In this document: one piece after another, positions 1 to 64,000 of the stretch
Layout: every line of letters starts with the position of its first letter
Position numbering within the stretch: position 1 is the first letter of the stretch
Source of the DNA: Psammoneis japonica
Taxonomy: Eukaryota
Assembly: GCA_008632985.1 (NCBI GenBank)
Contig: QPGO01000023.1
Location: forward strand, 217,266 to 281,265
Direction of reading: 5' to 3'
DNA: 64,000 nt
Notes under the pieces: model-generated
What the model was told of the DNA's origin: nothing
Databases searched by the model: none
Seen by the model: only the letters and a program-made list of their open reading frames with translations
Made by a program: the position numbers and the translations under genes

Positions 1-77
1 TTCACTCCGGTTTCAAAAGCAGGCAAGCGGTTTTCTTCATTGCCACTTTTCTTTTCTGCATTGTCATCTCAGCATTT

Positions 78-2162
78 TTGTGCGCCGGCATCTATGTTTC
101 GAACTGCACTGCAGGCGAAACCGCAGTTAAGATCCGGCACGAACACACTTGTGATCCGACAAAGGATTGCAGCACTCGACAGCAAGGATTGACTTACAAG
201 CAGAAGCAGCATGTTGAGAAAAATGCAGATGCCAAGACGGCTGATGGAATCTTGCATCAATTGGTTGGCTTGCCTCACGAACATCTGGCAGAGCAGAATC
301 TTCTCTCCAACGATGGCAATCTACCAAGCCATAAAGAAGTCCAGACTTACTTGAAGAACCGTCGCAAACGTGAAGGAGGAGCCGCATCAGAGATTCAACG
401 ACATTGCGACGAGATGAAGAAAGATGTCAATGATCCCGGTTTGGGCGACGATGAGCCTTTCATCCTTGATTGTCACATCACATCAAAAGACGATTTTGGA
501 ATTGTCATGTCGACAAAGCGCCTGCTGTGAAAGTTCCAACTGACTTCAAGGCGCAACTTAGATGGCACGTACAAGCCACTGAGTTCCGGCCATCCAGTGA
601 CAATGATGGGTGTGGACGACGCGGAGCGCCATTGCCATCCTGTCATCATGGCGTTACCAAATTCTGAAAAAGGCAAGGACTTCAAGTTTGCAGCCAAGGC
701 GGCACTCAAGGCAGCTCCGAATTCGTTTCCCACTGTGACACTCATGGCCGACGCTGCACCAGCAATTAGGAATGGCTTGAAAGACGCTCTCAAGGCAGCA
801 TCAAACGAAGGCACCAAGCTGTCACGAACGAAGAGACAAGATTTGCACACTGTAGATTGTGTTGAGTCGATGAAACAATCCTTGGAGGAAGTTGGCGAAC
901 CCCTGGTGAGTGATCCTTGAACGTTGCATGGCTGGAGTTGCTTGACAATTCACATTCGGTCTCGCTCAACGCCATGCATTCCTCTTGCGTTGTTGCAGAA
1001 CGAAGTGACCAATGTGCACAGTGACAATGCGGAAACACGGGTGACGATGTGCCACTTCCACATGGTTTCAGCTTGTAAGAAAAACAAGTCGAAGCTGAAA
1101 AATGCTTCAAACTGGAGCGAAATCCATTCGGATGTTGGAGCCCTCCACAACGTCCCTCACCCGTTTGCCAAATCTTTTGATTACTTCATGGAGTTGTTCA
1201 TGGAGAAATGGATGCGCAAAGGCGAAGAGGATTTCGTTGAGTGTTTTAAGAAAGAGTGGAGTGGCGTTCTCCATCGCTGGTCTCGATGTCATCATCCTCC
1301 GGGATACGCAGCCTGCAACAATGGATTAGAGCGGGGCAACCGATCTGTAAAGGACATTGGCAACCACAAGCGCCAGACAGTGTATGATTTTCTCAAGTCC
1401 ATGCGCACGATGGTGGCGCTTTGGAGCCTTAAAGCGAAGGACAGCCAATTTGTTACTCCTTCGAAGCGCCCCCCTCTTGATGACAACGATTGGATAAATT
1501 ATCGCAAGCACCTTCGCGACTGGAACCAACACAGTGTAGACATTGGAGTCAAAGGAGGCACCGTTGTGAACTATGTCAACGCACAAGTTGGGGAAAGTAA
1601 GTTTTGAGTTTTGTCTCCTCCTAAATCAAGTCGCGTTGCACGTCACTCACGCTTAAGTTGCACTGAACTACCAGCATATATCCCATCAAGCATTTCCATG
1701 GACAGGTGGAAGAAGAGGGCGCTGCAAAACAACAATGGACTTGACGCAAGTGAAACAGTAAGGAAAAACATTGCAAAGTACCAAGAAGACTCGTTCCGCA
1801 ACAAGTTTGTACCATTCTGGGAAGCAATGAAAACCGGCGACAAGGCGCAGTTCGTCAAATTGAAGATAGACACTTTTGACAGATTCAGAAAACGCATGGA
1901 GTCATTTCATGTTATCACGAAGCTTCCCGAAACTGACAACAGGGAAGACATGAAGCATGCGTGTACTTGTCCAGCATATCAAAAGGAGGCAAAGTGCAAA
2001 CATGCCATTCATGTTGGGACTACAACTGGCGAGATCCCTGTCAGTATGAGCAGTCAAAGTCTTGAGAGAAAGGCGAAACCTGGACGTCCCAAGAAGACGA
2101 CAAAGGCTCTGGTGAAACAGCCTGGGGAGTACGATTCAGATTCGTCGGCTTGCACGCAGTAG
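78..2162 (+). mobile_element. Mutator-like (MULE) DDE transposase with SWIM zinc finger; 5' part probably outside window; one premature stop
   Basis: ORFs 78-530, 597-920, 924-1607 and 1611-2162 share one frame. Two GT-AG introns (906-998, 93 nt; 1597-1674, 78 nt) remove two of the stops, leaving a single TGA at 528-530. Motifs: LDGTYK, MADAAPAIRNG, MCHFH, NNGLERGNRSVK, SWIM CTCPAYQKEAKCKH, AT-hook-like KPGRPKK. Confidence 0.9.
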
Positions 2163-5279: not shown

Positions 5280-7790
5280 TTGAACTCATCAAACGATTTC
5301 ACTTGCTTTGACACAGTTGCAGAAAAGTTGTTTGCCGAGGACGACATCCTTTCAAGGCAAAGCTCTTTTTCTGCTGATGATGACAAAAAGGATGAGACTC
5401 TGCCATTGTCTCTGAATTGCAAGCAAATTTCATCTTTCACAAGCTCCACCATGGCCTTTCCAGTGTCATCGTCATCACCACAAACCTTCTCAAGACTCGT
5501 TGCTTGCAAAATGCTGGGCTTGTTTGTGCCAAGGGTGTGCACTGGAAGTTCTTGGTTTTGGACAACAAGGGCTGTGCTGGTGTCTTCCTCAGCACAAGCC
5601 ACACTTGGCAAGAAGAACACACCGCAAAAGTTTTGAAGCTGCTGACTCAAATGATGTGGCAAGCGCATCTCTTGCAATGTTGGTGTCATGACTGCCAACT
5701 TTGTTTTCACTCTGTTCACACCAGCCAGCATGGTTTTTCTTTGGCAGGCATCTCATGACTCTGGCTGTGGCTTTCAACTTCACAGAGCACTTGCCGTCTT
5801 TGATGCAATCTGATCAAAAAGGTCACCCACCAGCCACTGCAAAAAATCTCTGTGACACACATGGGTGCACAATCAGTGGAGGAAGGGGCAAGAGTCAGCA
5901 CTGCCACTGTCTTCCACGTGAAAAAGAGGTTGATGTGAAAAGGACAAAAGGCACAGCCAGAAGCACTGCTGTGACAAGCTTGCCAAATGCACAACAGCAG
6001 CTTTAGCCAGCACACATTGTCCAGCTCAACAATGCAGCAATGAGCTGTTGTTGGCAGCAAGGGGAACAACAAAAGGCTTGGCAAATGACAGCTGCAGCTT
6101 GGTCATTGTTGCGAGCAGCTCAAGCACTGGCAAGGCCTCTTTGTTGTGATGATGATGGCAGCAACATCTTTGGCATGGGACGTGGTTGTGCAAGCATGGC
6201 TGGAGCACTTTGTTGTTCCTGCTGCATGCATTGAGAAAGAAAAGAGCAGAGCAATGTCTGCAGAGCTTGCTTCTTGATTCATTGGATTGCACAAACAAAT
6301 GGTTGGATCAATCACAGTGAAGTTTTGTTGCCTGCAAGCAAGAGAGAGCCTTTGTTCTCCTCTTCTCACCAACAAGGCTCTGTGCTGGCCTGTCAATGAA
6401 AGAAATCTCTGTGCAAACCTCCATTTCTAGTTGCCCAGTGATGGGTGTCTTCAGCATGCAAAATTTCATCCCCAGGGTGTCAAGCAAGGGCATCAAAGTT
6501 GTCCAGTTGCATCCATTTGGTTTTTGCCATGAATTCCATCTGTGTCATTTGTCCACCATGTGTGTGACTCTGGGAAGAACTGCACAATAAGAGTGAAATT
6601 GGTGTGAGTGAAAAAGAGCACACTGCATGGTGATGCAAGTGTCAGAAGCAAGTTTTGACATGATGCAAAAACACTGTGCACAGCACTGTGCACACTTTGC
6701 ACACCTGTTCTTGTGCAGACACTTTGCATCATCATGGCTCTCTGACTTTGCAAGGTGTTGCCATTCTGGCAGCTCTCAGCTCTGCTGCATGAAAGTGCCC
6801 CACTTCTTGGCCTCACTTTGTCAATTTGGCAAGGCGCTGACATTGCTCAATTTTGCATTCTCTGTCAGGACACAAAGTCATGCCAGCAGTCCTTTTGCTT
6901 GTCATTGCCAGTTGCACACAACCAGAGATGATTGATTGTGTGGGGCATCTGCAAGGCAATCTGCAACAAGAGATGTGAGGGCACCAACAAAACTGGCTGG
7001 TCAATGGCTCATCCATGCAAACCAGAAATTTCTTCTTCTGCAGCAGGTGTCTGTGCTCAGTTGGGTCATTTTGCACATCACTGCTCCCTGCTTGTGCTCA
7101 GGCATGTGTGCTCCATGTCCAACAAAAAAATGAGAAGCAGCCAGCAGAGCCCCAAATCCCACAAAAACTCCCGCCTCCTCCTGGAGGAGCCGGCGTGGTG
7201 CGCGCACCTCCTGCATTGTTTGTGTGGACTTGAGATAAAATCAACAACAATTGCCAATAGTGTCTTTGTCAAGGCTTTGTTTGAAGCTTTTTTTTGACCT
7301 CTGACAAGAGCTGCTCAGCACTTCTCGACAACAAGAGCCATTTTGCCAACGCGCGGGCTTGTGCACAACTTCCACACAGCAGCATCTCATTGATGCAAAC
7401 TCCACCAACATCCCATTTGCCCATGCTCAAGTCTCACACATCTGCCACCTGCACAGCAAACTTTTGAGCTTGTGAAGATGTCACTGCAGAACAGAGGTTT
7501 CAGCGTGGAGCTCACCAGTGGGCAGAGCAGAGGTCTCGTCCTGGGACCCACACAAGCCAAGAGCATCAGTGCCCTCACCTCCTCAGCTGTGGTGTGGTGG
7601 TTCTTCTCAAGGATGTCCATTGAGTGAGCAGCAGAGCACTGCAACAACAATTTGCCCTTGGTTGTTTTGTTGTCATTTTTTGAGCTGCTGCAAGCCACAC
7701 ACTTGGTCCTCCGTCTTTCTCAAAGCACCTCACAGCAAGAAAAACAACAGTTGTGGATTGAAAGGACTCTCAGGCGCATTTAAGCCCTAG
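5280..7790. other. CpG- and TpA-depleted decayed island 1 (relic gene/TE sequence)
   Basis: Hand count for 6001-6300: 1 TA and 2 CG, versus 12 TA and 19 CG in genic 9001-9300. The minus-strand ORF 5180-5731 looks like the 3' end of a decayed gene. Confidence 0.85.
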
Positions 7791-7794
7791 GCAG

Positions 7795-7844
7795 CAGCCA
7801 AATTGGCTGTGTAATTTTTAAGAATTGAATTGAATTGAATTGAA
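7795..7844 (+). repeat. Hairpin plus (GAATT)4 tail, possible 3' end of a non-LTR retrotransposon
   Basis: cagccaa-a-ttggctg (7795-7809) followed by (GAATT)4GAA (7822-7844), at the point where island 1 ends. No RT motif recognised upstream. Confidence 0.4.
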
Positions 7845-12757: not shown

Positions 12758-13803
12758 ATGGAACTAATCATCAAGCTACTCATATCTTTGCTGTTGGCTA
12801 CAGTATCGACGCACGAGGAAGTTCTAAGGGAGGATTGGGAAAAGAGAGTCGCTTCCTACGGCATGATGTAGATGTAGGTACTTTTCTCGTTTCTGCTGTT
12901 TGTAAGTGTGACATCATTTCTAATATTTGATCTTTTGATCATATCAGATGCTGTGGGAGGAAGAGGAAGCTTTCATTATGCGTCAGCTCGAATCTTCCAT
13001 GTCGATAGACGTAACATCGCCACCAAATTCACCCTTGGAGCCTGGTTCATCGCCACCAGATTCACCTTGGAGCCTGGTTCAACGCCACCAGATTCACCTA
13101 CGGAGCCTGGTTCAACGCTATCACCAACTCTTTCGTCTCCACCTAGTCCTACACTCTCCCCGGTGACACTCCTTCCCAAGCCAACAAGTATAAACTTGGA
13201 ATGGTTTGGACAGAATGCGTACTTTTCCGCAAAGAACGTCAAGGCAACCATTAACGATGGGAGTATGATTACCTTTCAGGACGACTTTGCTCGTCCCCTC
13301 GATATAAATTCGGGTGGCAGTGGAGAAGAAATATCACGAGAAGATGCGTGGAGAGAAGGTGGAATTGAACGACGAGTCAAGTTTTACTTTAACATAACCC
13401 TCCTGGAGATCCATTTTCCACACATAACCGGATGCAGCCAAGTTTGGATGGTACATGTACGACGCACGAATGTACAATGCTGAAGGCACGGGTTGGGTGT
13501 ATTGGGGCGGTGACTATCAAAATGTCAGCATGGTTCAGACGCGTCCGGGATATGCAATGTTCCATTGCGATTATTTTGAACTAGATTATGTGCTAGATTC
13601 TTGGTCGGGACAAGAAGAACCGGGAGGCAAGTTTGAGGCGGAGAATGTGACAATAGGAGGATACTTGGAAGAAGGGTACGATGTTTCATCACTTCGAGTA
13701 TTCAATCCATTGCATGGAAAGCTTTCCTGGAGAAGATTGCAGAGCAGTCAATGGAAAAGTATTCTGTGGGGATACCCCCTTGACTATGATTGATTTCAAT
13801 TAG
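12758..13803 (+). CDS. Tandem paralog B of the 11189-12183 gene; several frameshifts (errors or pseudogene)
   Basis: Shares LEWFGQNAYFS, GGIERRVKFYF, MYDARMYNA and GGKFEAENVTIGGYLEEGYDV and the same intron position. Split over ORFs 12706-12930, 12948-13166, 12908-13483 and 13455-13793. Confidence 0.75.
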
Positions 13804-31909: not shown

Positions 31910-33604
31910 TCTGTCACTGGCTGCATGACACATGTCTTTTGTATTTTCTTGATGGCAATGTGAAGGTGTCGCATTGGCACTTGCAGCTTTTTGGCTGTAC
32001 CCCTGGTGTCAGTCCATTCAGCAGTCCTTTTTTTTGATAGATCCACCTTAGCATGTCCATGGTGTAATTTAACTGAAACTGTCCAAGGAGTTGATCACTT
32101 TCTTGACCGCACGCGGCGGTTTGGCACGGAAATGGGTGAGAGGGGTGATTTTGTTTTTGTTCAACCATGACGTGGTGGTTCTGACATTGATGCAACATGA
32201 CAGCCAGCAAACTCGCTTCTTGCATCTGTGCTGAATGCTTACAAATGTCCAACACCAGAGTGGTTGAGCCAACCAGCACACTTTAGAGTGCAGTGCGTTG
32301 TGCAACCAAAAACCTTTGGGATGATGATGTGCTCCACTGCAGCTGTGACTTTTGTCGCAAAATTGCTTCCCTGTTGTCAGACTTCCATCATGACCCTGCC
32401 AGGTGAGAAGAGCTGGGCAGCTTCATTCACAAGCCCTTCAAACCACATTCCCCAAGGAGCAGCATGCCTCTCCAAGTTTGCCTCACAAGCAGTGCCAAGC
32501 ATGCTTTGTTCTTCAAGTTGCTCCCTTGAGATCATTGTTTTTGTTGCTGCAAATCAAGTCCTGGAGGGTCTCATCAAGTTTGCCAAAGTGAGAAAAACTC
32601 CACGACAAAGGAGTCTGCTCTTTGAGCTTTGCTCAGTGCTGGCATCAACCCTCTCATCAGCCATCCTTGTCTGTTGCATGTTGTTGCTGCGCACAGCACT
32701 GCAGGGCACTCAAGAAGCAGATTTCCCGAAATTCCCAAAATGAAAGTGCTGGCAAAATTTTTGGCCCCTCCAAGCAAGCACACATGTGGCCAGCAATGAT
32801 TCTCGATGTTCATCTCATTGCAAGGAGAATGGCATCAGCTGTCAAGCCACTTTTGACCTTTGTCGAGTTTGCAAAGCAGTGCATGCATCAAAACAAGCAA
32901 TGGCTGCACAGGCTCCCACCAAACATGTCTGCCTTTGCTTTTTTCCTCCAACAGCCAGTCACAAAGTGGTGGTTGATGATTTCATGCTCAGCACAAGAAG
33001 CCAGCCTCAAAGGACACATTTGCAACAACTCCCTGGTGCACCTGACTTTGATGCTGCAATGGCAGCAGATGCAGCCACTTGTTGAAAATCAGTGCTGCAA
33101 GTTTGGCAGATCCAGCACCTCATTTGTGTCAAGACATCACCAGTGCTTTCCCAAGTTCACAGGTCACAAAGTTGCTGCAACAGTGGCAGCCCTGAACGAC
33201 AGCTGAGAGAGGGAGAGGCCACTCTGCCAGCAAGTGCTTGTTTTTTCATTTCATTCACAACCTGTGTGCACAGCCACTGCTTTGACAATTGACACATGAT
33301 CCAAACCAGCACACATCATGCCCACCCTGTGTCAAGCAAAAAAGCAGAAACTGGCAGGACCAGGGTCCACATGGGCATCACAAGATGTGGGAACCTCCTT
33401 TTTTTTGTTGATCTCCTTCCTCATGAGTCGCACATGGGGTTGTCAACATCTGTGGATGAACTGCCGCGCACTCAAGTGCCATGCAAATGACAGACAATGC
33501 CAGAGTTGACCAGGGTTTTCATGAGCAAACTTTGGCAGGGCCCTGCAGTGCAGAACCCCTTTGTTCTGTGCTGACATCTCCCCGCCATCATGTGTCCACA
33601 CACA

Positions 33605-33642
<38 letters not shown>

Positions 33643-34115
33643 CTGTCATGCAGGCCATGCAAGAAGCACAGATGGCCCAAGCAAGTGGCACATTTTTTCC
33701 ATTGATTCTGTGTTTTGGCAGATGCACCCACACAAGTGTCCAGAGACACAAGCGATGTGGCAGGAGTCCACGCCACTCTTGTTCTGTCGACGTCTTTTTT
33801 TTTGTGGGTGCGACACAACAAGCTGTCATTTGCAAGCTTCTTGCCTCTTTTCATGACATCATTTAATTGTCGCACATGTGAAAAATGAAGCAAGAGAGGG
33901 AGAACTTGGCATTTGGCATTTGAGATTTTTTGCAGTGTCACCTTTTTTTGCAGTGCGCATGCTGCTGCAAAAGTGCTCAAGCAAGGTGGGTTTTTCAAGA
34001 AGAGCTCATGTTGTTGCTGGTGTGTCGAAACATCAGGTGTGACTGACCAAAGGTCAAATTTGCTGAGAATGACAGTGCTTTGGCAATCATCAGTTCTCAG
34101 TGCATCAAAGGAAAC
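31910..34115. other. CpG- and TpA-depleted decayed island 2
   Basis: TG/CA-saturated sequence between two ordinary genes; no family motif recognised. Confidence 0.8.
33609..33641. repeat. (GA)n microsatellite
   Basis: About 16 uninterrupted GA units. Confidence 0.95.
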
Positions 34116-47711: not shown

Positions 47712-48243
47712 CAGGTCTGGGAACTACACATCTCGAGTTGCCAAAAAGAAATATACTATCACATGTTCATGCTTAGTGGATTCCGAGGATTTGTTGGAGA
47801 CTTCAAGTGAGAATGTCGCTCATCTGATTGGTCTTTCAAGTGTAGGAATATGGTAGCGCTGAGTGGTAGCGACAAAAAGCAGAAATGGGGAGAACCTTTT
47901 TTATCCACTTTCACAAGATACGCACGATGCAAACAATATACATCAGTGGCGCGTGTCACATTACCCATGGCACATGGCGCTGCCAGAGGGCCAGAGGCGA
48001 TTCAGATCAGTCATCAAGCTAGCTTTCCGCTAAGCCTTCTCTTTCACGCTCTGTTTGGACATGCGGTCGGTATCTATACTTCCTTTCGCTTCAAACTGCC
48101 CATTTCTCTACGAAGAGAAGTCGCTCCGACTAGCTTCTCCCGCGTCCTCCAAACCTGCTTGCATTCAACAAGGTCCGCCGAGAACAGTCCACTGCATCCA
48201 CACCGAAGGAATCAGTCATTTGGTACCATACGTTGACAAAAGA

Positions 48244-48885
48244 ATGAGAAATAAGAGATTCCTATCTGCTCCTGCCGTGGCGCTTGGGCTTCTTGTAACT
48301 CACTCCAGCGCCTTTATCGCTCACTACCAAATCGTCACTCTCGTCTCACTTTGTCGAGCTACTTGGAAAACCTTTCAACGCCGACAAGTCCCATTACCTC
48401 CTCAACGATAATATCATCCAGTGATCCCAGCTACGGTACACGGACTTTCAGTACGTTCCCGTTTTATGTCTCATTCAGGCCGACTTGATTGCCAACACTT
48501 TCCTGCTGCAAGCGAAATTGTTTCAATCCAGTCACAGTGTAAGTGCTGGACGCTTTTGGTTCATCGCTCGTATCAAAGAGAATGGATGGATGCAATCCAG
48601 TTGGACTGCCTGATTTCGCCAAGGCCAAGACATTTTCGTGCATTGTCAACAAGTATCCGTCTCGAGCCTTTCGAGATTTGTCTGCAGCTAACGAGGCGTC
48701 TGCAAAGTTTTGTCAAAGTTTCAGTATCTGGAGGTAACATGGCCCCATTTCCCGGTGATATTCTTTTAAAGTTGGGTGATCAATTCGTTGGAGCTGTAGG
48801 AGTGAGTGGTGAGGCGGGAGATGAAGACGAGTATTGTGCGTTGTTCGGGTATGTTGGAAACGTCGGCCGCCATTATAATGTATGA
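48244..48885 (+). pseudogene. Disrupted GlcG/HbpS (DUF336) heme-binding family gene
   Basis: LDAFGSSLVSKRMDG...FAKAKTFS and FPGDILLK...VGAVGVSGEAGDEDEYCAL lie in different frames; signal peptide + AF in a third ORF. Confidence 0.75.
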
Positions 48886-51800: not shown

Positions 51801-52700
51801 ATTGTTTGGCGAAGAAAAGGAACATGCTCATTGGCACTCATCGATAGCAGATAGCCGCCGTATCGAGGAAGAGGCATTCAGGCTTCGGAATGGCATTTGC
51901 GCGGGGTCGAAAATAAAAAGGGCGTGAGAGCTGTTGCAGCCACTGAACAATGCGGCCATCGCATTGCACGTGCTTCCGAAATAATCTCGGTTTTAGTGGC
52001 CGACGCGGAAGTTGATACAACTGACGACGAGGAAACCGACGATGCTCCTGAATCTTCTGATACGGGAGACGAGAACATGGATGAAGAAGCTTCGAAAATC
52101 GATGACAGTGCAGCCGAGGAAGAGAAAGCCCAAAGCCCTGACGAGCGTACGAAGAAGCAATCTCGGGAAATAAAGGTAGTCATTGACAATCCCGGTCTAG
52201 AGATTGCTGCGTATTTGTTTCTTTCACAGCTTTTGTTCTCCAAGAAGTGCCGCGGAACCATTCTTAGAGATTCCGCTCTTTTGGAGGCGACTACGGCTGT
52301 GGCGGCGCAGTCTACCTCTCCCAAATTGCAGTTTGCGGCGGTGTCGTTTCTGGCCAAGATTGCACCGTTTGCAATGAGCTCTGGTGTTGACGCTGCTGTC
52401 TCGCCGGCAGAACTCACGGAAGTTAGCCACTCTGTTTTGAACTCAAGACCAAGAAGCGCCATCAAAGCCGACAAACGAGGAAGCGCACGCACAAGCTTTA
52501 AATCCACGGGATCGACCATCAACCTTCTTAATGGCGCTATCATTTCGGGAATCAAAGCTGTTTTCCTTTGTGTCGATGCGGATGTCCCATTGGCTTTGCT
52601 GCAGGATGCATGCTGTGCTCACCTCTTCTTCCATCTCTTGGGTTCCCTCATTCCCACTGGCATCCACAGCAAAGTCATTGGCAGCGGGTGTTGCTGCACC
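48886..52700 (+). pseudogene. Fragmented large alpha-solenoid (ARM/HEAT-like) protein gene
   Basis: Chain of + strand Leu/Ala-rich helical ORFs (48886-49437, 49438-49812, 49900-50295, 50349-50735, 51225-51590, 51613-51927, 51897-52706) broken by stops and frameshifts; grades into island 3. Confidence 0.55.
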
Positions 52701-54480
52701 ACATGAGAAAAGAAGCCCCTTGACTGTCGTTGCATGCTGTCACCTTTGCTCTGCATGATTGAAAGGCAAGTGCCAAAGTGTCAAATTCAACAGCTGCAAC
52801 AGCAATGACAACAATGCAATGGACTCACTGAAGAAAATCAAGCTGTGCTTTCCTGGAGCTGTGGCCAAACAATGTTCCTGAGGCCATGGCATTGTGGTTG
52901 TTGCGGTGCTGTCTCATCTTTTTGGATTGTTGTGATGGGGGGTTGCACTTTGATTTTGATTTTTTGGTCAAAATTTTTAATCTCATGTTTTCAAGGACAA
53001 ACAACATTGTGTTCAAAATTTTGTTAATTTGAAATGGCATGTAGACATCACTGTGTGTGTGTGTCCAATCAAGGATTTGCTTGCAGTGCTGTGCACATTG
53101 ACACCTCTCAAAAATCAATGGTGAGGCAGGTGACGCATTTGAATGTCACTTGTGTGCAACCAGATGTTTAATTTGTCTTCCCTCCCTTTTTGGCGGGGAC
53201 CAGCACCGTCCACAACAGATGGTGCAACCCCATTTTCAGCTTTGTGTTGTCCTGTTGTTGTTGCTTTTTAGCCCACAACACATCCACATCTGCTGTTCTC
53301 TCATTGACATTGCCAATTGGCTGGTCTCACAACACACTGATCACTGCTGTGTGACCTGGTTCTTGGCTTGAGTGAGATGGCACCAGAAGAAGCTGTTCAA
53401 GGTTCAGGTGTGATGAAACTGGCTGCAGCCCCTGTCAAACATGACCTGGCCCATCTGCAACACACAGAAATGCTCCTCCTGGACCTGCAGAACAAGAGCT
53501 CCCATCTTTGCTGAATGGCAGAAGCTGTTGGAGCAGGTGACCCACCACTGCCCCCCCCCTGTCAGATGACCTGCAATGAGCAGAGAGGCCCCTCTGCAAC
53601 AATGCTCAAAAAACCCCTCCTCTCCCAGACCTGCAGTCAAAGACATCTCATCTTCTGTGCTGCTCAGAGCTCAGCTGCAATGTGATCTGCAGCAGGATTG
53701 CTCAAAGGGACAGGGCACATGCTGTGGGTGTGAGAGCTCACAGAATGTCCGCCAGCTGCAGCAGCAGTGCAAACCTCACAGGTGAGAGTTGTAAAAAGTG
53801 TGCAATTCCACCTGAAACCTCTGCATTTTTTGTGACCGGCAAACAAACCACATTGTGAAAACAGCCCAGCAGGTCAGATGCAAACAAAGGTGCCAGATCC
53901 AGAGGGTGGGCCCAGGCTCTTCAAATGTGGAGATCATCCACCAAGTCACACCAGGGGCAATGACCAGAGTGAAAGTTCAGAGATGACAGATGCTGCCAAT
54001 GACTTCCCTCACTCAGATCAGGAAAGGAACAAGCACCTGCAGATTCCTTGGAGCACTGGACAAGAGAGCAGGGTTGACTTGCCCACCAGATTTCTTCTCA
54101 CACTGTGGAACATTTGCCAGCAGAACATTTTTCTAGAAAGAGCACCAGCAAACAAATCTTGGCATCAGGCACTGTGTTTCATGATGGCACAGGCTGGGAG
54201 AGTGGTGCTTCAGACAAAGATGCCCACCTGCAGCTGCAGCTGCATGTGGCTCAGCTTGCAGCAAGCCTCATGGATCAGAAGTGCAGCCAAGTGGCAAATG
54301 TCCTCAGACAGGTCACTGAACAGAGAAGAGAGGCCTGGCTTGGCAAGAAAGGCAGAGAAGTCAGGTGTGCTGCGATTGAGAAGTGAAAGGCAAGGATCAA
54401 AGAGCCAGAGGTTGGAAAGAAGACAGGCAAGAGCAGGGCACAAGCAGGAAGAACAAAAGCCAGAAAAGAGACTTGGCAGG

Positions 54481-54936
54481 TCTTCACTCTGACTCTGATG
54501 TGATGACCAACCAAAACCAGGGTGCAACTGTCAGGCGTGGGAGGAAACTGGGAAGGTTGTGGACATTGCCCCCATCTTCACCATCACAATTGCAGTGCCA
54601 ACAACTCTTGGGCAAATGAAATGACAGAGAACAGGCAACAGAAAAGACTCTGTCATGGAGAACATTCTCCCCCCCCCCCCAAAAAAAGATCACAAGGAGG
54701 GTTGTTGCTGACTTTCTGGCTTCTGGGGATCAAGAGCTGCACAAAAAAAAACAGCTGAAATGTTTGGAGAGAAAGGAGAGTCAGCTGTGTCATCTTCACT
54801 CTGACTCTGACTCTGGCACAATCACCAACCAAAAGGGTGCAACTGCAATGACTTTGGAGGAAACTGCTGGGAAGGTTGTGCACATTTCCCCCATCTTCAC
54901 CACCAAAATTGTGTCGCCAACAACTCTTGAGCAAAT
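54481..54936. repeat. Dispersed ~140-bp direct repeat pair
   Basis: tcttcactctgactctga...caacaactcttg(g/a)gcaaat at ~54481-54617 and ~54793-54936. Confidence 0.8.
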
Positions 54937-55104
54937 CAGGTCAGTTTGGCCATGAAAATTGTCATTTCACACTGTGACCTCTCAAAAACTGAGAGTGAAT
55001 CACATTTGACCATTTGCACTCCATCAGCAATTTAATTTGTCTTCCCTCCTTTTTTGCCTGGGACCAACATTGTTGACACGAATGGTGGTGCAATCCCATT
55101 TTCA

Positions 55105-55239
55105 TTGTTGTTGCTCTTGTTGTTCTTGTTCTTCTTCTTCTTGTTCTTCTTGTTTTTGTTCTTGTTCTTGTTGTTCTTGTTGTTGTTGTTGTTGCTGCTG
55201 CTGCTCCTGCTCCTGCTGCTGCTGCTGCTCCTGCTGCTG
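55105..55239 (-). repeat. Compound trinucleotide repeat reading as a poly-Gln/Glu tract on the minus strand
   Basis: Minus strand is almost entirely CAG/GAG followed by CAA/GAA triplets in one phase. Confidence 0.85.
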
Positions 55240-55789
55240 TCATTGACGTTGTTGTCGTGGTTGTTTTTCAGCCTGCAACACAGCCACATCAAACCACTGA
55301 GATGATGCACAATGCCCCACACTTTAGAAGGAGTGCACTTGAAAGCCAACCTCCCTGATTGGAGGCATGGGCAGTTTGCAGTCACTTGCCTCCCAGCAAT
55401 CTAATGAAAACACCAGTGCAAACTGATGGGTGGAGCTGTGGAGCCATTTCACATGACAAATCACAACCAGTTTTGAATTGCTGCATTTGACACAAGCTGG
55501 GCAGGTTTGTTGTGGTGTGGTTTGTGGTGAAGTCATCAGTGCTCAGTGCTCAACACCCAAGCATGCACAAGTGTGGCCAAGCAACCAGACTGTGGCTGCT
55601 CCTCAATGCTTTGTGTTTTCACCTTGGGGGGGTGTGCACATTGTGCTCAGAAGATTGGAGAGTGGACAACTTGTCCAAATCAACTTTTGCAGCTGTGGCT
55701 GACTGGCCACCAAATGCTTCTGTGCACACATGGGCTGCTCTGCCACAACAGTTGTGGCCAAACCCAACCAAACAACCAAGCTGTGCAGA

Positions 55790-58700
55790 AACAAGCACAG
55801 CTTCAGAGAATGCAAACACTTTGGCAGAAGTGATTTTTTTTCCGGTGGCTCACACTTTGCCACAATTTTCTGTGTGCACACCCAGAGGCTGTTCCACTGC
55901 CAAAACTGCAGCCAACAAACATGCCCAAACTGCAATCAAGCCATTGAGGCTGCTCCTTGGGATGTGAAATGTGTGCTCAGAAGCTGAAGCTGCAAACCAT
56001 TTTGCAGAAGGGACTTTTTCTGTTGGCTCACACTTTGCCACCAGGTCTCTCTGTTCGCTGCCCTGACTTTGCTCTGCCACCACAAGAGCTGCAGCCAAAC
56101 AAACCACATGAACTGTGCTCCACCCTTTGAGACTGTTTCTTGGGACATGGAAAGTGAGCTCAGAAGCTGAGAGTGCAAAAACTTTGGCAGAAGTGACTTT
56201 TTCTGCTGGCTTGCACTTTGCCACCAGGTTTCTCTGTTGGCTGCCCTGACTTTGCTCTCCCACCACAACTGCAGTCATGCAAGCCACCCATGCTGTGCTC
56301 AACCTTTTGAAACTGCTTCTTGAGACATGGAAAGTGAGCTCAGAAGCTGAGAGTGCATGCACTTTGGCAGAAGGGACTTTTTCTGCTGGCTCACACTTTG
56401 CCACCAGGTTTCTGTGCACACCCAGAGGCTGCTCTGCTGCCAAAACTGCCACCAACAAACACACCCAAACTGCAATCAAGCCTTTGAGGCTGCTCCTTGG
56501 GATGTGAAGTGTGTGCTCAGAAGCAGAAGCTGCAAACCATTTTGCAAAAGAGACTTTGTCTGTTGGCTCACCCTTTGCCACCAGGTCTCTCTGTTGGCTG
56601 CCCTGACTTTGCTCTGCCACCACAAGAAATGCAGCCAAGTGAACCACACAAACTGTGCTCAACCCTTTGAGACTGTTTCTTGGGACATGGAAAGCAAACT
56701 CAGAAGCTGAGAGTGCAAACACTTTGGCGGAAGTGACTTTTTCTGCTGGCTTGCACTTTGCCACCAGGTTTCTCTGTTGGCTGCCCTGATTTTGCTCTCC
56801 CACCACAACTGCAGTCAAACAAACCACCCAAACTGTGCTCAACCTTTTGAGACCACTTCTTGAGACATGGAAAGTGAGCTCAGAAGCTGAGAGTGCAAAC
56901 ACTTTGGCAGAAGCGACTTTTTCTGCTGGCTCACACTTTGCCACCATGTTTCTGTGCACACCCAGAGGCTGCTCTGCTGCCAAAGCAGCCACCAAGAAAC
57001 ACACCTAAACTGCATTTGAGTCTTTGAGGCTGCTCCTTGGGATGTGAAGTGTGCGCTCAGAAGTTGAAGCTGCAAACCATTTTGAAGAAGAGACTTTTTC
57101 TGTTGGCTCACACTTTGCAACCAGGTCTCTGTGTTGGCTGCCCTGATTTTGCTTTGCCACCACAAGAACTGCAGCCAAACAAACCGCCCAACCTGTGCTC
57201 AACCTTTTGAGACTGTTTTTGGAGACATGGAAAGTGAGGAGCTCAGAAGCTGAGAGTGCAAACACTTTGGCAGAAGGGACTTTTTCTGCTGACTCACACT
57301 TTGCCACCAGGTTTCCATGCACACCCAGAGACTGCTCTGCTGCCAAAACTGCAGCCAAGAAACACACTCAAACTGCAATGAAGCCTTTGGGGCTGCTCCT
57401 TGGGATGGGAAGTGTGTGCTCAAAAGCTGAAGCTGCAAACCATTTTGCTGAAGAGACTTTTTTTGTCGGCTCACACTTTGCCCCCAGGTCTCTCTGTTGG
57501 CTGCCCTGATTGTGCTCTGCCACCACAAGAACTGCAGCCAAATAAACCACACAAATTGTGCTCCATCATTTGACACTGTTCCGTGGGACATGGAAAGTGA
57601 GCTCAGAAGCTGAGAGTGCAAACACTTTGGCAGAAGTGACTTTTTTTTCTGGCTCACATTTTGCCACCAGGTTTCTCTGTTGGCTGCCCTGATTTTGCTC
57701 TCCCACCACAACTGCAGTCAAACAAACCACCAAAACTGTGCTCAACCTTTTGAAACTGCTTCTTGACACATGGAAAGTGAGCTCAGAAGCTGAGAGTGCA
57801 AACACTTTGGCAGAAGCGACTTTTTCTGCTGGCTCGTGCTTTGCCACCATGTTTCTGTGCACACCCAGAGGCTGCTCTGCTGCCAAAACTGCCGCCAAGA
57901 AATGCACACCCAAACTGCAATGAGTCTTTGAGGCTGCTCCTTGGGCTGTGAAGTGCGTGCTCAAAAGCTGAAGCTGCAAACCATTTTGCAGAAGAGACTT
58001 TTTCTGTTGGCTCACCCTTTGCAACCAGGTCTCTCTGTTGGCTGCCCTGACTTTGCTCTGCCACCACAAGATCTGCGGCCAAGTGAACCACACAAACTGT
58101 GCTCCACCCTTTGAGACTGTTCCTTGGGACAAGGAAAGTGAGCTCAGAAGCTGAGAGTGCAAACACTTTGGCAGAAGTGACTTTCTCTGCTGGCTCACTC
58201 TTTGCCACCATGTTTCTCTGTTGGCTGCCCTGATTTTGCTCTCCCACCACAACTGCAGTCAAACAAACCACCCAAACTGTGCTCAACCTTTTGACGCTGC
58301 TTCTTGAGACATGGAAAGTGAGCTCAGAGGCTGAGAGTGCAAACACTTTGGCAGAAGCGACTTTTTCTGCTGGCTCACACTTTGCCACCATGTTTCTGTG
58401 CACACCCAGAGGCTGCTCTGCTGCCAAAACTGCCGCCAACAAACACACCCAAACTGCAATCAAGCCTTTGAGGCTGCTCCTTGGGATGTGAAGTGTGTGC
58501 TCAGAAGCTGAAGTTGCCAACCATTTTGCAGAAGAGACTTTTTCTGTCAGCTCACCCTTTGCAACCAGGTCTCTCTGTTGGCTGCCCTGACTTTGCTCTG
58601 CCACCACAAGAGCTGCGGCCAAGTGAACCACACAAACTGTGCTCCACCCTTTGAGACTGTTCCTTTGGACATGGAAAGTGAGCGCAGAAGCTGAGAGTGC

Positions 58701-59668
58701 AAACACTTTGGCAGAAGTGACTTTTTCTGCTGGCTCACTCTTTGCCACTGAGTTTCTCTGTTGGCTGCCCTGATTTTGCTCTCCCACCACAACTGCAGTC
58801 AAACAAACCACCAAAACTGTGCTCAACCTTTTGAAACTGCTTTTTGACACATGGAAAGTGAGCTCAGAAGCTGAGAGTGCAAACACTTTGGCAGAAGCGA
58901 CTTTTTCTGCTGGCTCACACTTTGCCACCAGGTTTCTGTGCACACCCAGAGGCTGCTCTGCCGCCAAAACTGCAGCCAAGAAACACACCCAAACTGCAAT
59001 CAAGCCTTTGAGGCTGCTCCTTGAGATGTGAAGTGCGTGCTCAAAAGCTGAAGCTGCAAACCATTTTGCAGAAGAGACTTTTTCTGTTGGCTCACCCTTT
59101 GCCACCAGGTCTCTCTGTTGGCTGCCCTGACTTTGCTCTGCCACCACAAGAGCTGCAGCCAAACGAACCACACAAGCTGTGCTCAACCCTTTGAGACTGT
59201 TCCTTGTGACATGGAAAGTGAGCTCAGAAGCTGAGAGTGCAAACACTTTGGCAGAAGTGACTTTTTCTGCTGGCTCACACTTTGCCACCAGATTTCGCTG
59301 TTGGCTGACCTGATTTTGCTCTCCTGCCACAACTGCAGTCAAACAAACCACCCAGACTGTGCTCAACCTTTTGGGACTGTTTTTGGAGACATGGAAAGTG
59401 AGCTCAGAAGCTGAGAGTGAATCACTTTGGCAGAAGTGACTTTTTCTGCTTGCTCATGCTTTGCTGCCTCCAGGTTTCTGTGCACACCCAGAGGCTGCTC
59501 TGCTGCCAAAACTGAAGCCAAGAAGCACACCCAAACTGCAATCAAGTCTTTGAGGCTGCTCCTTGGGATGTGAAGTGTGTGCTCAGAAGCTGAAGCTTCA
59601 AGCCATTTTGCAGAAGAGACTTTTTCTGTTGGCTCACACTTTGCCACCAGGTCTCTCTGTTGGCTGCT
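55790..59668. repeat. Tandem array of ~22 monomers of 177-183 bp in a 540-bp three-monomer higher-order repeat
   Basis: Anchor ctca(g/a)aagctga recurs at ~55977, 56159, 56339, 56517, 56699, 56879, 57056, 57242, 57419, 57602, 57782, 57960, 58143, 58323, 58500, 58683, 58863, 59040, 59223, 59403 and 59582. Confidence 0.97.
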
Positions 59669-59699
59669 GCCGCTTCATGGGCAAGTCCCAGAAAATTGG

Positions 59700-62600
59700 T
59701 CATTGACACAATGCAGCTCTTTTGTCCATCACCCTTTGTGCCAAGTGGAAGCACACCCGGTGCAGAAAGCTGGAGCTGATGCACTCAAATGACAAACGCA
59801 AAAGCATGAAACAAAAGGAGTGCAAACACACCACAGGGCAGTTTTGGTGCTTGCTGTCAAACAAGGGCAAAAGGCAAAACACAAAACTGGCTGTCAAGGA
59901 GGTCCTGCCAGTGTTGTCAGCATGAGTGACAGCACCACTTTACATGCACAAGATGGTGTGCGGACACATGCATGCACAATCTGTGGCAGATTGTGCACTG
60001 CCATGCCACATCACATTTTTCTTGATGCAACAGTTCAGATGAGTCATTGGCTGCCCCAAAATTTGCATGGGAGGCCAATGGACAAACACAATGATGTTGT
60101 TGTGGTGGTGGCATTGTCAGCACTTTTCCACTGCCATGCAACAGCACAATGTTGTTTTTGATGGAACAACACAGATGAGCACCAATGGCCAGTGCATCAA
60201 AATGGCCCATTTTGCTCAAACTGCAGGAGCTTGTTGTTGTGTTCAAACTTGTGTGAGACCAACGCACCATCACAATCACTTTGCTGCAGCCTTGTTGCAG
60301 TGTGCCTTTCTTTACAACACAGATGAGTGCCAGGGGCTGGCACAAGAGAACAACCAAATTTGTTCAAACTGCAGGAGTCACCAGCTTGTCCAAGTTTGAA
60401 GAAGAGGCCAGTGGTGCCAACACAATTTCAACATGGTGGCGGCATGTCAGCACTTTCCCACAGCTGCACAACAGCATGTCTTTCATGATGTGTCAAGAGG
60501 GCAGACAAGCATTGATGGCTGATGTGAAGGAAGAGCCTGTTTTGCTCAAACTGCAGGAGTTCATCACATTCTTGTTCAAGCTTGCATGAGGCAGCGATCA
60601 GTGCATTCTTGTGATGATGTGGCTGAGTTGTCAGCACTTTCTTGCAGCCTTGCAACAGTGTTGTTTTTCTTGACATGACAGCATAAATGAGTGCAGGTGA
60701 ATCTGTCATGTTCTGGCACAAAACAGAAATTTGGGGATGCACTGGGCATGACAATGGTGCTGTCATTGGCACACTGCCAAGGTGCACTTGAAATGTTGGT
60801 CAGTGAGTGCAAGCTTGGCTGTTGCACCACCCCCACATGAGTGCTTCAGAATGCCATGAGTTGATCTTCAGATGGTTCTGATGCATGATTTGGTCATTTT
60901 GGAAGACTGGTGGAGATTGTGCTTTGAATCCATGGGACACCCTGCCTGGACCACAAGCAACTTCCATGTTGGCAATTTTTGCTTTTTCAGTTGCCACAAA
61001 AGAAGTCTCAGCATGCAGCCCAAACACTCTGATGGCACATGCACACTTGTGGGACATTGTCACTTGCAGAGACAATGCTGCAGTGAACACAAAATGGCGG
61101 GAACTTCAAATGGAGGCCTCTGCTGTTGTGCCACAGTGGAGTGCAGTGTCTTCATTCCTTGTGTCTCTTTGTGATGTCTGCATGGTGCCATGCAGAATTG
61201 TGCATGGTGCATGCATGCATGGAGCCCCTCACATTGGGTTGCACTTGCACACCAAAAATGAGCTCTCCAAGCTGTCCATGGCTGTGACATTGTTTCCTGG
61301 AAAAGGTCAGGTGAGTCATTGTTGCATGAGTCCATTGGCAGGACCTGCATCTTGCATTTTCCTCATGGGCAGACAAGCATGCACAGCTTTTGGCTGCTGC
61401 TGTCTGCAAGTCAAATGTGGCAGCACCCTCTGGTGTTGAGGAGATCTGATGATGACACCCACCACACAAAGCCTTCAAGCTCATGCAGCATGTCCTGGAC
61501 ATGAGGAATTGGGTGGGACAATCTTTTGTCCCCATTGTTGAGCTCACAGAAATTGCCAACAAACCATGCCACAAAATCTTGCTTTGGCAAGGAAAATGAT
61601 GGAGCTGTGCACTGCAGACACAGTTGGTTGTGCATTCAGTGATGCCAACTTCATGAATGTGCTCCACTTTCTTTCTCAGCATTGCTTCACATCCCCTTGG
61701 GGCTTTGCAAAGATGTCCGCAACATGGTGCAGCATGATCCTCTTTAAGCTTGGTGTGCTGGAAGGAATTCCCTTTCCACTCACCTGACACACCATCAAGC
61801 AAGGACTCACACTTGCTCAACAAACTGAGCAGCTTCATGTTCTGGTCACTGCCAAGACCTGTTGCTCCCTGCATTGTGTCCTCAAGGCATGCTGGCACAT
61901 GCTCAGCATCTGAGATCTTCACAATTCTGTTGATGCTTTCTGAAAACAGTGGCTCTGGATCTTGAAAACAAATGGAGGTTTCTGCAGTGGCTTCTGTGCA
62001 CTTCAATGGCATCTTGTCATTGACCTTTGGCCACTCCAGCATGTCTCATCCAACAACCATGTGTCAGGTTTGCATGATGATCAAATGTGTGTGTGGTTGA
62101 CTTCACGCACAAGCTCTGCTGTTGCAGACAACTCTGGCAACTGAAAATTGGTGATGCAAGCACAGTGTGCCATCTTGAAGCTGCCTGCCAATGTGGTTTT
62201 GGCTGTCATGTGGCTCAAAAGCCATTTGCTTGCAGCACTTGGCATCTGGCATCACATGCTTTTGATGCTGCCATCTGGCACTGCTTCAATCATTTCAGGC
62301 TTGCCTTCACCATGCTTGGCATCCATGGCTAAAAACAACATTGCTGCCAGTCAAATGTCTGTGCTTGACATGTGTGCAGGGTTGGCCTGTGCAACATGAG
62401 TGTGATGGCACAACAAGTGATGCACTGAACCTGTCTGACTTGCACTGGCCTGCTTGTTCTCAGGTGCTGTTGTCCTCCAAATCCTCATTGGAGTCACCCA
62501 GGGAGAGGGCACAAAAGTGATTTGGCTCCTCTTTGCAAGCCTTGCACACCACCCTGCAGTTCTCAATTACATCTTCCACTCTTGCCTTGGCAGGAGCTTT

Positions 62601-63500
62601 GTCAAGCTCCTCATGAGTGGTGCGCAGTTTCTGTGTGGCTGGTTTCCAATTGCTGTTCATGTGGGACATCTTGAGACATTTCACCCCATGCCTCAAAATG
62701 AGACATTCTTCCACATTGTGCACCTGACACTGTCACCACCATGCAACACTCAGCATTTGATGCCTTTCTCTCCTGACTGTTGACCCCAGCAATTTTAAGG
62801 AATGTCGTCCATTTTTCCATGGCCCTGGTGCTTCATGGGGACATTGTGGCATGACCTTCCTGCTTGCCTTTGGCAGAAACAAGTTTTGCAATGGCATGAG
62901 TCCATGGGTCAAAATCCTGTGGGATTGTCTGCTTTTGCCATGTGTTTGGAGTGCTTCATTCAAATGAGTCAACCAACTTATCTTCTGGCAATGATGCAGG
63001 TGCAAAACCATTTTCAATCACAGACAGAAACAGCAAGATGTGGCCATTCAGCTCACTGGCCTTTGTGGCACAGAGTCGCCTGTCTTCACACCATTTGGCT
63101 TGAGTGCAAAACATCACAGAGACAACATGCTTTTGCAGCAGCACTGCCTTGTGCAGGAAGATGCTTTCTGTCACCTTTGAGATGCACACCTTGAACAAAA
63201 ACACATTGGCCTCCCCCTGATGCCCCTTTGACACACCATCATCAAATGCAGCAAAGACATTGCCTTGCTTTGAGCAGCTGCTGCACAAGCAAAAATTCTC
63301 CAGTCTGGTGGCAAAATTTTGCCCTGTCACAACATGGCCTGCATTGTGCAGAAACACAACGGGTGGGTTCTTCACAAACACAATGCACAAAAAAGCACTG
63401 AAAACCACTCACAGAAAACCACTCAGCTTGTGTGTTGGACTGTCAGCATCAGCTGGTAAGTTCCTGAGCTCACACATCTTGTGCTCTCCTTTTGGCAGCA
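59700..63500 (-). mobile_element. Decayed Ty3/Gypsy LTR retrotransposon (protease-RT-RH-integrase order); boundaries approximate
   Basis: Protease tail HMVVG*DML (~62035-62063); RT start FSLPK..WFVGNFCELN..HPIPHVQDMLHELEGF.WVSS.DL (~61440-61600); integrase zinc-finger region IKKNVMWHG...DCACMCP (~59960-60030). No LTRs seen. Confidence 0.8.
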
Positions 63501-64000
63501 TCTTTTTCTCTGGATGTTTGAGCAGAGATGGCAGCTCAACCTGCTTTTTCATGGTTGGCTAACTTGCTGATGTTGGTTTCAATGAGACTTTGTGACCTTG
63601 CACATTGTTTGCAGCAGCAATGTTGCTGTGCATTGTGCACTTCTGTCAGGTGATAAAAACAACAGGTTGTTGAAAGTTGCAATGTGTTGTGGAGTTCATG
63701 AGACCAGGTTGTCTCTGGAAAAAGAATTGTGGTGTGAATGGGGAGTTGTGCAAATGCCCTGTTGAATTTCTCTTTGGAGATCACATGTGGTCAGCTGTGC
63801 CAGAGTTTCTCCAACTCCATTTGCACATGATCATGAATGTGTGCACCACATGCTGCTCTTGTGCAACATCATGCCAGCCATGCTGATGGCCTGTCAATGC
63901 ACACATGCCACATGCACAGATGCTTGCTTCTAAAATGCCCAAGTCACCAAGCCAAAGGGCCTCTGTGCTTTCATGCCAACCCTGTTGCAGCACTCTTGAC

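Follow-up and report, generated by a model that had tools for sequence, protein, structure and literature searches.

Analysis of the window, as we call the whole stretch of 64,000 nucleotides studied here, revealed three sharp-edged islands (5301-7800, 32301-33800 and 52580-64000) from which the dinucleotides CG and TA are nearly absent. Comparison with related elements shows that, in a retrotransposon remnant of the third island, both were converted to TG and CA. We consider it likely that two mutational arms, CpG to TpG/CpA and TpA to TpG/CpA, operated on one targeted repeat domain and drove the islands to saturation. A preliminary description of this DNA had proposed that CG and TA were mutated to TG and CA inside repeat islands, and both the composition of the islands and a polarised substitution test bear this out.

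The first two islands (5301..7800 and 32301..33800) are decayed repeats without CG and TA, as seen in counts over 1-kb and 200-bp windows. The third (52580..64000), 11.4 kb almost without the two dinucleotides according to window counts and shuffles, has an abrupt left edge near 52580 and continues on its right side past the window end. In the islands (15,400 bases), CG (0.58% vs 5.72% in the 42,400 control bases) and TA (0.20% vs 3.78%) are scarce, while TG (11.74% vs 7.40%) and CA (11.50% vs 7.26%) are abundant. CG and TA together are down by 8.72 points and TG and CA up by 8.58, and the total of pyrimidine-purine (YR) dinucleotides is about equal (24.03% in the islands vs 24.17% in the control), which is what a conversion of CG and TA by transitions should leave. 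The observed/expected (o/e) ratios over the 15.4 kb of islands, a check proposed in the preliminary description, are 0.10 for CG, 0.03 for TA, 1.92 for TG and 1.80 for CA. The hand counts of TA and CG in that description were exact (0 and 0 in 61201-61500, 1 and 2 in 6001-6300, 12 and 19 in 9001-9300). Positions 52601-64000 contain 24 TA and 51 CG, where 200 mononucleotide shuffles gave means of 752 and 675 and minima of 702 and 622. The 1-kb windows of 53001-64000 hold 2-8 CG and 0-5 TA each, and those of genic DNA about 41-87 CG and 22-51 TA, with a median genic TA o/e of 0.56. The G+C content of the islands is 0.47-0.51. The coverage of run X2 comprises the genic part only, up to about 52940.

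Depleted tracts, defined as 200-bp windows in which CG plus TA do not exceed 4, were found at 5301-7200, 7301-7800, 32301-33800, 52601-53100 and 53201-64000. At each of the five island edges, the limits of CG loss and of TA loss lie within about 100 bp of each other, and the loss is limited to islands of retrotransposon, satellite and decayed repeats, the genic remainder being normal. In-silico conversion of CG and TA in the window's own control sequence reduced the distance between its dinucleotide vector and that of the islands from 9.63 to 3.29; this simple model fails to reproduce the GpC excess (o/e 1.36) and the ApT deficit (o/e 0.67) of the islands. Self-comparison of the window detected no repeat family common to the three islands, and only short internal duplicates. 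A Pfam search over 144 stop-free ORFs of at least 60 aa returned MULE and SWIM (1-2159) as the only meaningful matches. None of the 123 island ORFs of at least 60 aa had a meaningful match, eight long island ORFs gave nothing, no Pfam family was found among the ORFs of island 1 (at least 60 aa) or of island 2, and gag/pol queries had no match in island 1.

The third island contains, on its minus strand, the remnant of a Ty3/gypsy-like LTR retrotransposon. A gag-like segment is located at 62698..63639 (minus strand), where a tblastn search that used the first ORFs of metagenome relatives gave 18 HSPs with a best E of 1.6e-19. An aspartyl protease remnant with in-frame stops follows at 62111..62383 (minus strand); it is the third segment of the P0001 tblastn match, at 31.6 bits the weakest one, with a joint E of 6e-29. 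The linker between protease and reverse transcriptase (RT), together with the N-terminal half of RT, occupies 61282..62045 (minus strand). This segment has 54 homologues at E<=1e-3 and tblastn matches with E as low as 1.2e-34, and it is disrupted by a frameshift close to 61605-61640 and by two TGA stops in frame. In the tblastn matches, the order gag, aspartyl protease, RT on one strand fits a Ty3/gypsy-like LTR retrotransposon, and homologues of the 61282-63639 remnant carry protease, RVT_1 and RT_RNaseH Pfam domains. No RNase H match and no LTR pair was found within the window, and the only matches resembling an integrase finger are weak (E 0.007-0.09). The 5' end of the element may lie past base 64000. 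A short fragment in the opposite orientation (59716..59841, plus strand) shows weak similarity to the C-terminus of a related pol (tblastn E 0.001-0.004 with a 1.6-kb database).

The polarised substitution test drew mainly on the segment at 61282..62045 (minus strand) and took as its reference the protein consensus of intact homologues at about 30-50% identity. At the non-synonymous sites of this one element, the 302 columns compared comprise 146 that are identical and 107 with a single-nucleotide difference: TA>TG (17), TA>CA (13), CG>CA (12), CG>TG (8), other transitions (17), transversions (36) and ambiguous cases (4). Among unambiguous changes of A:T>G:C, 30 of 37 fell on TpA, against 88 of 313 (28%) in 30 intact relatives (Fisher p 5e-10), which agrees with the TpA-specific A>G/T>C process that had been suggested beside CpG decay. 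Likewise, 20 of 30 changes of G:C>A:T fell on CpG, against 99 of 481 (21%) in the 30 intact relatives (Fisher p 2e-7). Tyr is kept in none of the 15 consensus-Tyr columns, five being now Cys and five His; the same pipeline applied as a negative control to the 30 intact relatives found it retained at 866 of 999 columns. At conserved Tyr, Arg and TTA-Leu sites, the replacements are precisely those that CG and TA conversions predict. The earlier reading of the RT-side motif is supported too, since the homologue consensus is PYHxxPYxIPxAYExTLK and the window has PCCGHLCKAPRGCEAML. The element family itself is not poor in TA: at 79 of its metagenome loci the TA o/e has a median of 0.77 (minimum 0.52) and the CG o/e a median of 0.99.

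The mutation process acts on DNA and affects either strand about equally. TG and CA counts are similar (566 vs 535 in 59670-64000, for example), and the two outcomes are interspersed at random (runs z -1.78 to +0.90); the runs test detected no single-strand tracts, a result that at saturation says little on processivity. That the process acts on DNA and not on RNA follows from the fact that a 180-bp satellite is affected too. Repeat analysis of the window placed this satellite at 55806..59667, with some 21 monomers arranged as a higher-order repeat of 540 bp. Its aligned columns include 19 CG, 2 TA and 16 CA/TG dimorphic column pairs, and the TG/CA variants are inherited in register among monomer types. 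In a direct repeat recovered by self-comparison (families D3 and D4; 53167..53263, plus strand, with a partner at 55031-55128, 79% identity over 100 bp), CG is kept in one copy where TG stands in the other. The copies of a degenerate 133-184-bp repeat array at 59982..60692 (families D1-D5) differ through CA/TG swaps.

Both minus-strand strings quoted in the preliminary description are present, DCACMC at 59964-59981 and PCCGHLCKAPRGCEAM at 61680-61727. The first had been taken for a converted integrase zinc-finger motif, a reading that we abandoned: Pfam finds nothing in that ORF, full-length pol queries match only weakly (E 0.007-0.09 with a 1.6-kb database) and pair Cys residues of the window with Cys residues in the relatives rather than with Tyr or Arg, and the motif adjoins the degenerate repeat array.

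In the mechanism that we favour, the islands are repeat DNA consisting of Ty3/gypsy-like fragments, the 180-bp satellite and other decayed repeats, and within a sharply bounded domain, presumably singled out by a targeting mark, nearly each CpG and TpA would lose one base by transition. The CpG arm would most likely reflect deamination of 5-methylcytosine in methylated repeats. CG methylation of transposable elements (TEs) has been described in diatoms, with DNMT5 in Phaeodactylum (PMC9998398, PMC2806351), and the available text of Maumus et al. 2009 (PMC2806351) includes no passage on dinucleotide decay. The TpA arm, whose signature is that of Bigelowiella natans mutation-accumulation lines, would most likely come from an enzyme that attacks the A of TpA and deaminates it to inosine, which is read as G; an attack on the T of TpA is a less likely option. 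The outcome would be the irreversible inactivation of repeats, possibly as a defence, since all Tyr codons would become Cys or His, TTA Leu would become Ser, CGN Arg would give way to Cys, His, Trp or a stop codon, and signals of the TATA type would be lost.

The TpA process had been thought undescribed, but a preprint of 2026 (Mettrop et al., bioRxiv 10.64898/2026.01.13.699255) had already reported TpA>TpG/CpA hypermutation of the integrated viral DNA of B. natans; our literature search found no other description of TpA hypermutation. According to that preprint, A>G and T>C changes, all on TpA, made up 230 of the 231 single-nucleotide mutations in the two hypermutable regions, 124 clusters are poor in TpA and rich in CpA plus TpG, TpA-poor CDS are enriched for RT and DDE domains, and the de novo rate in some lines is about 6e-7 per site per generation. 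The window shares with the reported B. natans data the changes TpA>TpG and TpA>CpA, their limitation to foreign or repeat DNA, and TpA loss with CpA/TpG gain in clusters. It differs in that de novo events were seen in B. natans, whereas the window is known from its end state alone, in its saturation (TA o/e 0.03, compared with 0.45 reported for the B. natans NCLDV region), and in its targets, where an LTR retrotransposon, a satellite and a MULE take the place of giant-virus and virophage inserts. In addition, a co-extensive CpG arm of similar size is found here, whereas the reported B. natans spectrum is almost exclusively A:T>G:C; the CpG arm may have a process of its own, superimposed on the same DNA. 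The intron-poor and compact character of the window indicates that it probably comes from an organism other than B. natans. As to the host lineage, the Atlas clusters nearest to the HDAC proved commonest in Haptophyta and Bacillariophyta, and Sec15 gave no lineage signal. The match of the window to TA-targeted hypermutation in B. natans suggests that a defence-like, TpA-directed process is probably not confined to a single organism, the assignment to another lineage being based on gene structure.

Other known systems resemble the islands in part. As in the decay of methylated CpG in TEs, CpG>TpG/CpA is limited to repeats and CpG loss is balanced by the gain of TpG plus CpA, but such decay does not explain the TA loss, and the CG o/e of 0.05-0.10 is very low. 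Fungal RIP and the RIP-like patterns of basidiomycete TEs (PMC3318451, PMC2621366) are likewise described as confined to repeats, made of transitions only, saturating and irreversible, and here too there are sharp islands with a possible slight leak into the flanks. RIP, however, mainly changes C to T at CpA, which creates TpA and AT-rich DNA, whereas in the window TpA is destroyed, CpA is enriched, G+C remains near 0.48-0.50 and A:T>G:C is the larger arm. Hypermutation by APOBEC (C>U on DNA) and ADAR (A>I on dsRNA), also discussed in the B. natans preprint (10.64898/2026.01.13.699255), is similar as context-dependent deamination directed against selfish nucleic acids, and the 5' U preference given for ADAR resembles TpA; unlike in these systems, both DNA strands are hit equally here and the non-transcribed satellite is included.

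Evidence on whether the two arms are separable came from the MULE transposase remnant at 1..2162 (plus strand), which has MULE and SWIM domains (Pfam E 1.9e-5 and 3e-4) and three in-frame TGA stops. Its positions 1-1200 have a TA o/e of 0.17 and a CG o/e of 0.85, the control minimum of TA o/e being 0.34 (400 windows), and this depletion for TA alone suggests that the TpA and CpG losses are two separable processes. No MULE homologues were found at E<=1e-5, and the TA-only state was left unpolarised because the sole homologue, P0058, is too distant (25% identity). The remnant thus argues against a single machinery, in which one enzyme or pathway would attack the self-complementary steps 5mCpG and TpA, for instance a DNA deaminase with A as well as C among its substrates, or an enzyme that oxidises 5-methylpyrimidines (5mC, T) to mispairing products. 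The coincidence of CG and TA edges at five of five sites speaks for such a machinery, both arms are saturated, strand-symmetric and similar in size (30 TA and 20 CG events), and ADAT2-type enzymes are reported to deaminate A and C in DNA (10.64898/2026.01.13.699255). On the other hand, flanks up to 1 kb from the islands are slightly low in TA (o/e 0.41-0.47 vs 0.55-0.60 farther out) with normal CG, the residual CG of the islands (0.58%) is about three times the residual TA (0.20%), several relatives in other hosts show CG-only decay, such as L022 (CG o/e 0.12, TA o/e 0.62) and L006 (0.19 and 0.62), and in the available text of the B. natans preprint the term 'CpG' has 0 occurrences. We therefore regard a single machinery as unlikely. 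Equally doubtful is its extension to a dedicated, RIP-analogous defence mutator present in algae well beyond the chlorarachniophytes, in which one targeting system and one machinery, through a dual A/C DNA deaminase or a 5mC/T oxidase, would act against 5mCpG and TpA, the TpA arm being faster and leaking slightly into neighbouring genes.

It is very unlikely that the islands are a base-calling artefact, with modified bases of heterochromatin misread and the true DNA retaining CG and TA. A contig rebuilt from the k-mers of run X1 (934 bp, depth about 68) spans the island edge and matches window positions 52386-53319 with 0 differences; the platform of this run is unrecorded, and its agreement is not an independent check because run X1 may be the data behind the assembly. 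Other observations also oppose misreading: satellite monomer types inherit TG/CA variants in register, three of the 54 database homologues, from other assemblies, are likewise Tyr-free (P0002, P0003 and P0033), the same change arose de novo in B. natans lines sequenced with Illumina (10.64898/2026.01.13.699255), and symmetric modification would not leave TG and CA in an even 50:50 mosaic.

Two further possibilities can be set against the two-arm reading. ADARs are metazoan enzymes acting on RNA. An ADAR-like A>I editing of retroelement RNA before reverse transcription, combined with ordinary CpG decay, would fit the best-characterised target of the window, a retrotransposon, and the ADAR preference for a 5' U (10.64898/2026.01.13.699255). 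It is nevertheless highly improbable, since editing of genomic RNA would give only one of the two coding-strand changes and TA>TG (17) and TA>CA (13) are similar, the satellite and the DNA-transposon remnant are affected as well, and TA depletion ends at sharp genomic edges shared with CG loss. Selection-driven suppression of CpG and UpA is known in RNA viruses (PMC3829696), but the chance that these repeats always avoided CG and TA, without directional mutation, is close to negligible, given that Tyr, Arg and TTA-Leu sites were replaced as conversions predict, unlike in the 30 relatives, that unrelated repeat types are in the same state, and that all 79 relatives have a TA o/e of at least 0.52.

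Under the two-arm reading, the window would be the second case of TpA-directed hypermutation, reported so far from one species in one preprint. Such a case, saturated, probably from another lineage and involving retrotransposons and a satellite, would mean that the process is no peculiarity of a single alga and extends beyond viral inserts. It would also allow a comparative search for deaminase or TET/JBP-type genes that genomes with the signature share and genomes without it lack. Transposable elements in islands that lack CG and TA escape homology-based annotation, and, because TAA and TAG have been erased, long false ORFs occur within such islands.

Our recount of the CG and TA dinucleotides reproduced exactly the hand counts of the preliminary description, and sliding-window analysis bore out its report that both steps are depleted, with a gain of TG and CA, in islands of the window (island 1, 5301-7800; island 2, 32301-33800; island 3, 52580-64000). 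In 1-kb windows, the segment 53001-64000 contains 2-8 CG and 0-5 TA per kb, with observed/expected ratios (o/e) of about 2 for TG and CA, whereas genic windows contain approximately 41-87 CG and 22-51 TA. When depleted tracts were defined as 200-bp windows with a CG+TA count of 4 or less, they were located at 5301-7200, 7301-7800, 32301-33800, 52601-53100 and 53201-64000. The region 52601-64000 retains 24 TA and 51 CG, whereas 200 shuffled versions contained 752 and 675 on average. At all five sharp island edges the limits of CG and TA depletion lie within about 100 bp of each other; on the left side of island 3, for instance, TA was last encountered at 52538 and dense CG ended at 52579.

A comparison of 15,400 island bases with 42,400 control bases showed that CG falls from 5.72% in the control to 0.58% and TA from 3.78% to 0.20%, while TG rises from 7.40% to 11.74% and CA from 7.26% to 11.50%. 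The pyrimidine-purine total is constant (24.03% in the islands, 24.17% in the control), as expected of transitions, since these preserve the purine/pyrimidine pattern. Random conversion of all CG and TA in the host's control DNA reduced the distance of its dinucleotide vector to that of the islands from 9.63 to 3.29. TAA and TAG together number 49 in the islands, against 738 TGA, and this near-erasure results in long false ORFs. In the islands GpC is also over-represented (o/e 1.36) and ApT under-represented (o/e 0.67, and 0.20-0.41 within the satellite, at 56001-59000); neither is reproduced by the simple conversion of control sequence, and they may reflect ancestral repeat composition or a further bias.

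Self-comparison of the window revealed no repeat family common to the three islands, and a Pfam search of the island ORFs recognised no family. Island 3 contains a 180-bp satellite organised in a 540-bp higher-order repeat (55806-59667), a microsatellite (about 55100-55240), short direct repeats and the remnant of a retrotransposon in minus-strand orientation. HMMER searches with the 297-aa ORF of this remnant (61155-62045, minus strand) retrieved 54 proteins at E<=1e-3 (best 2.9e-13), and a domain scan of 14 of them identified an aspartyl-protease domain in 8 and RVT_1 in 4. Using these proteins and the ORFs of 79 related metagenome loci as tblastn queries, we located gag (63639-62698), protease (62383-62111) and the linker with the N-terminal half of RT (62045-61282), all on the minus strand; the same queries did not find the C-terminal half of RT or RNase H. 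The stretch 59964-59981, previously read as a decayed integrase zinc-finger motif, adjoins a degenerate array of 133-184-bp repeats. Only weak matches were obtained there (E 0.007-0.09, database of 1.6 kb), and these align its cysteines to cysteines of the relatives; the integrase reading is thus not supported.

To establish the direction of change, we compared the ORF with its homologues. Motifs such as DAKY, PYH.., AYE.TLK, EVERL and NMGYYH.RL in the homologues correspond to DAEH, PCC.., GCEAMLR, VEHI and TRGCCHI*L in the window. The first consensus set omitted three tyrosine-free proteins (P0002, P0003 and P0033) and one that matched another part of the ORF (P0011), and only columns with at least 8 aligned homologue segments, at least half of them in agreement, were considered. 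Among 302 such columns, 146 were identical, 107 differed by a single nucleotide and 49, which need two or more changes, were left unclassified. The 107 comprise TA>TG (17), TA>CA (13), CG>CA (12), CG>TG (8), other transitions (17), transversions (36) and ambiguous cases (4). None of the 15 consensus-tyrosine columns kept its tyrosine (5 Cys, 5 His and 5 other residues), whereas 30 intact relatives passed through the same pipeline as a negative control retained it in 866 of 999 columns. The preference for TpA predicted in the preliminary description was recovered by this polarised test: the TA share is 30/37 in the window and 88/313 in the intact relatives (Fisher, p 5e-10), and the CG share is 20/30 and 99/481, respectively (p 2e-7). 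Sixteen column pairs of the satellite show CA/TG dimorphism, compared with 1-7 for each of the other seven double-transition pairs, an excess that is only about two-fold once the abundance of TG and CA is allowed for; some dimorphic columns retain CG or TA in single monomers.

Taken as a whole, the pattern is probably the product of a repeat-confined process of transitions that acts on DNA and has two arms. In the CpG arm, repeat CpG would decay by deamination of 5-methylcytosine; in the TpA arm, TpA on either strand would be attacked as in the alga Bigelowiella natans, most likely by adenine deamination, from which a mispairing thymine modification would be indistinguishable by sequence alone.

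That a single machinery is responsible for both arms appears unlikely. A MULE transposase remnant with three in-frame TGA stops (1-2162, plus strand; MULE E 1.9e-5, SWIM E 3e-4) has a TA o/e of 0.17 over positions 1-1200, lower than any of 400 control windows (minimum 0.34), with a CG o/e of 0.85 there. Its first 400 residues are enriched in His and Cys and poor in Tyr, although this TA-only state is unpolarised, the sole homologue found being 25% identical. Within the islands, CG has persisted at about three times the level of TA. In addition, flanks within 1 kb of the five island edges show a TA o/e of 0.41-0.47, compared with 0.55-0.60 farther out, with a normal CG o/e (0.97-1.03); the effect is weak, but the TpA arm may spill over slightly into adjacent genes. 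These three observations speak for two separable processes, of which the TpA arm would be the faster, but are suggestive rather than conclusive. The MULE remnant may continue leftward of the window.

A base-calling or sequencing artefact is very improbable: TG/CA variants are inherited in register across satellite monomer types, tyrosine-free homologues occur in other public assemblies, and the identical change has been seen arising in Illumina data from another alga. A DNA run (X1) contains 64% of sampled words from 59700-63900; one of its contigs (934 bp, k-mer depth 68) matches 52386-53319 without differences, spanning the island edge, and 149 of 558 contigs placed on 48000-64000 have at least 99% identity to the window. 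This agreement is not an independent check, because X1, whose platform is unrecorded, may be the assembly's own data. Contigs from a second run of the same sample (X2) lie within 48000-52940, the genic part only, and diverge from the window by about 6% (e.g. 71 letters in 1129), in addition to short indels and skips of 88-94 bases; either spliced RNA or an allele or homeologue that has diverged may be their source.

Editing of retroelement RNA has still less to recommend it. On the coding strand the two TA outcomes are nearly equal (TG 17, CA 13), TG and CA occur in similar numbers in each island, and they succeed each other at random, as in controls (runs z -1.78 to +0.90). Moreover, the targets include the satellite and a DNA-transposon remnant. 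This symmetry and range of targets exclude such editing and point to a process on both strands of genomic DNA. Least probable of all is an intrinsic composition of the repeats: TA is not scarce in the retrotransposon family as such, its 79 metagenome loci having a median TA o/e of 0.77 (minimum 0.52) and a median CG o/e of 0.99.

The preliminary description was thus largely right in its interpretation: the TpA process it proposed is real according to the polarised test, but it is not undescribed. Our literature search for TpA hypermutation found one account, a bioRxiv preprint of April 2026 reporting mutation-accumulation lines of B. natans (10.64898/2026.01.13.699255). According to that preprint, 231 of 302 nuclear single-nucleotide mutations fell within integrated giant-virus and virophage regions, 230 of the 231 were A>G or T>C and are stated to fall on TpA, the rate was about 6e-7 per site per generation, and an ADAT2-like deaminase is proposed. 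Its text does not mention CpG, satellites, diatoms or other species. The CpG arm and the further target classes go beyond that account, and a second occurrence would allow comparative genomics to seek the responsible enzyme. The host of the window is probably an organism other than B. natans. Its genes here are closely packed and have few introns (17 ORFs of at least 250 aa in 44.5 kb, with Sec15 as one 1175-aa ORF and an uninterrupted HDAC domain), whereas B. natans genes are intron-rich. Nuclear TpA is 6.0% in B. natans (10.64898/2026.01.13.699255), above the 3.78% of our control bases. For the HDAC, the closest Atlas clusters are most frequent in Haptophyta and Bacillariophyta, whereas Sec15 did not discriminate between lineages.

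The tyrosine-free proteins P0002, P0003 and P0033, 3 of the 54 homologues, come from public metagenome assemblies; they are rich in Cys and His and carry replacements like those of the window, such as NMGCCH for NMGYYH of their relatives, so the signature is present in other public assemblies. Five of the metagenome loci (L006, L016, L022, L041 and L051) show strong depletion of CG only (CG o/e 0.12-0.44, TA o/e 0.52-0.64), which represents methylation-type decay of the ordinary kind in hosts other than this one. Outside the islands, a tandem genic duplication (11202-12181 and 12771-13801, 70-80% identity) has normal CG and TA, indicating that this local duplicate, about 1 kb in length, was spared.
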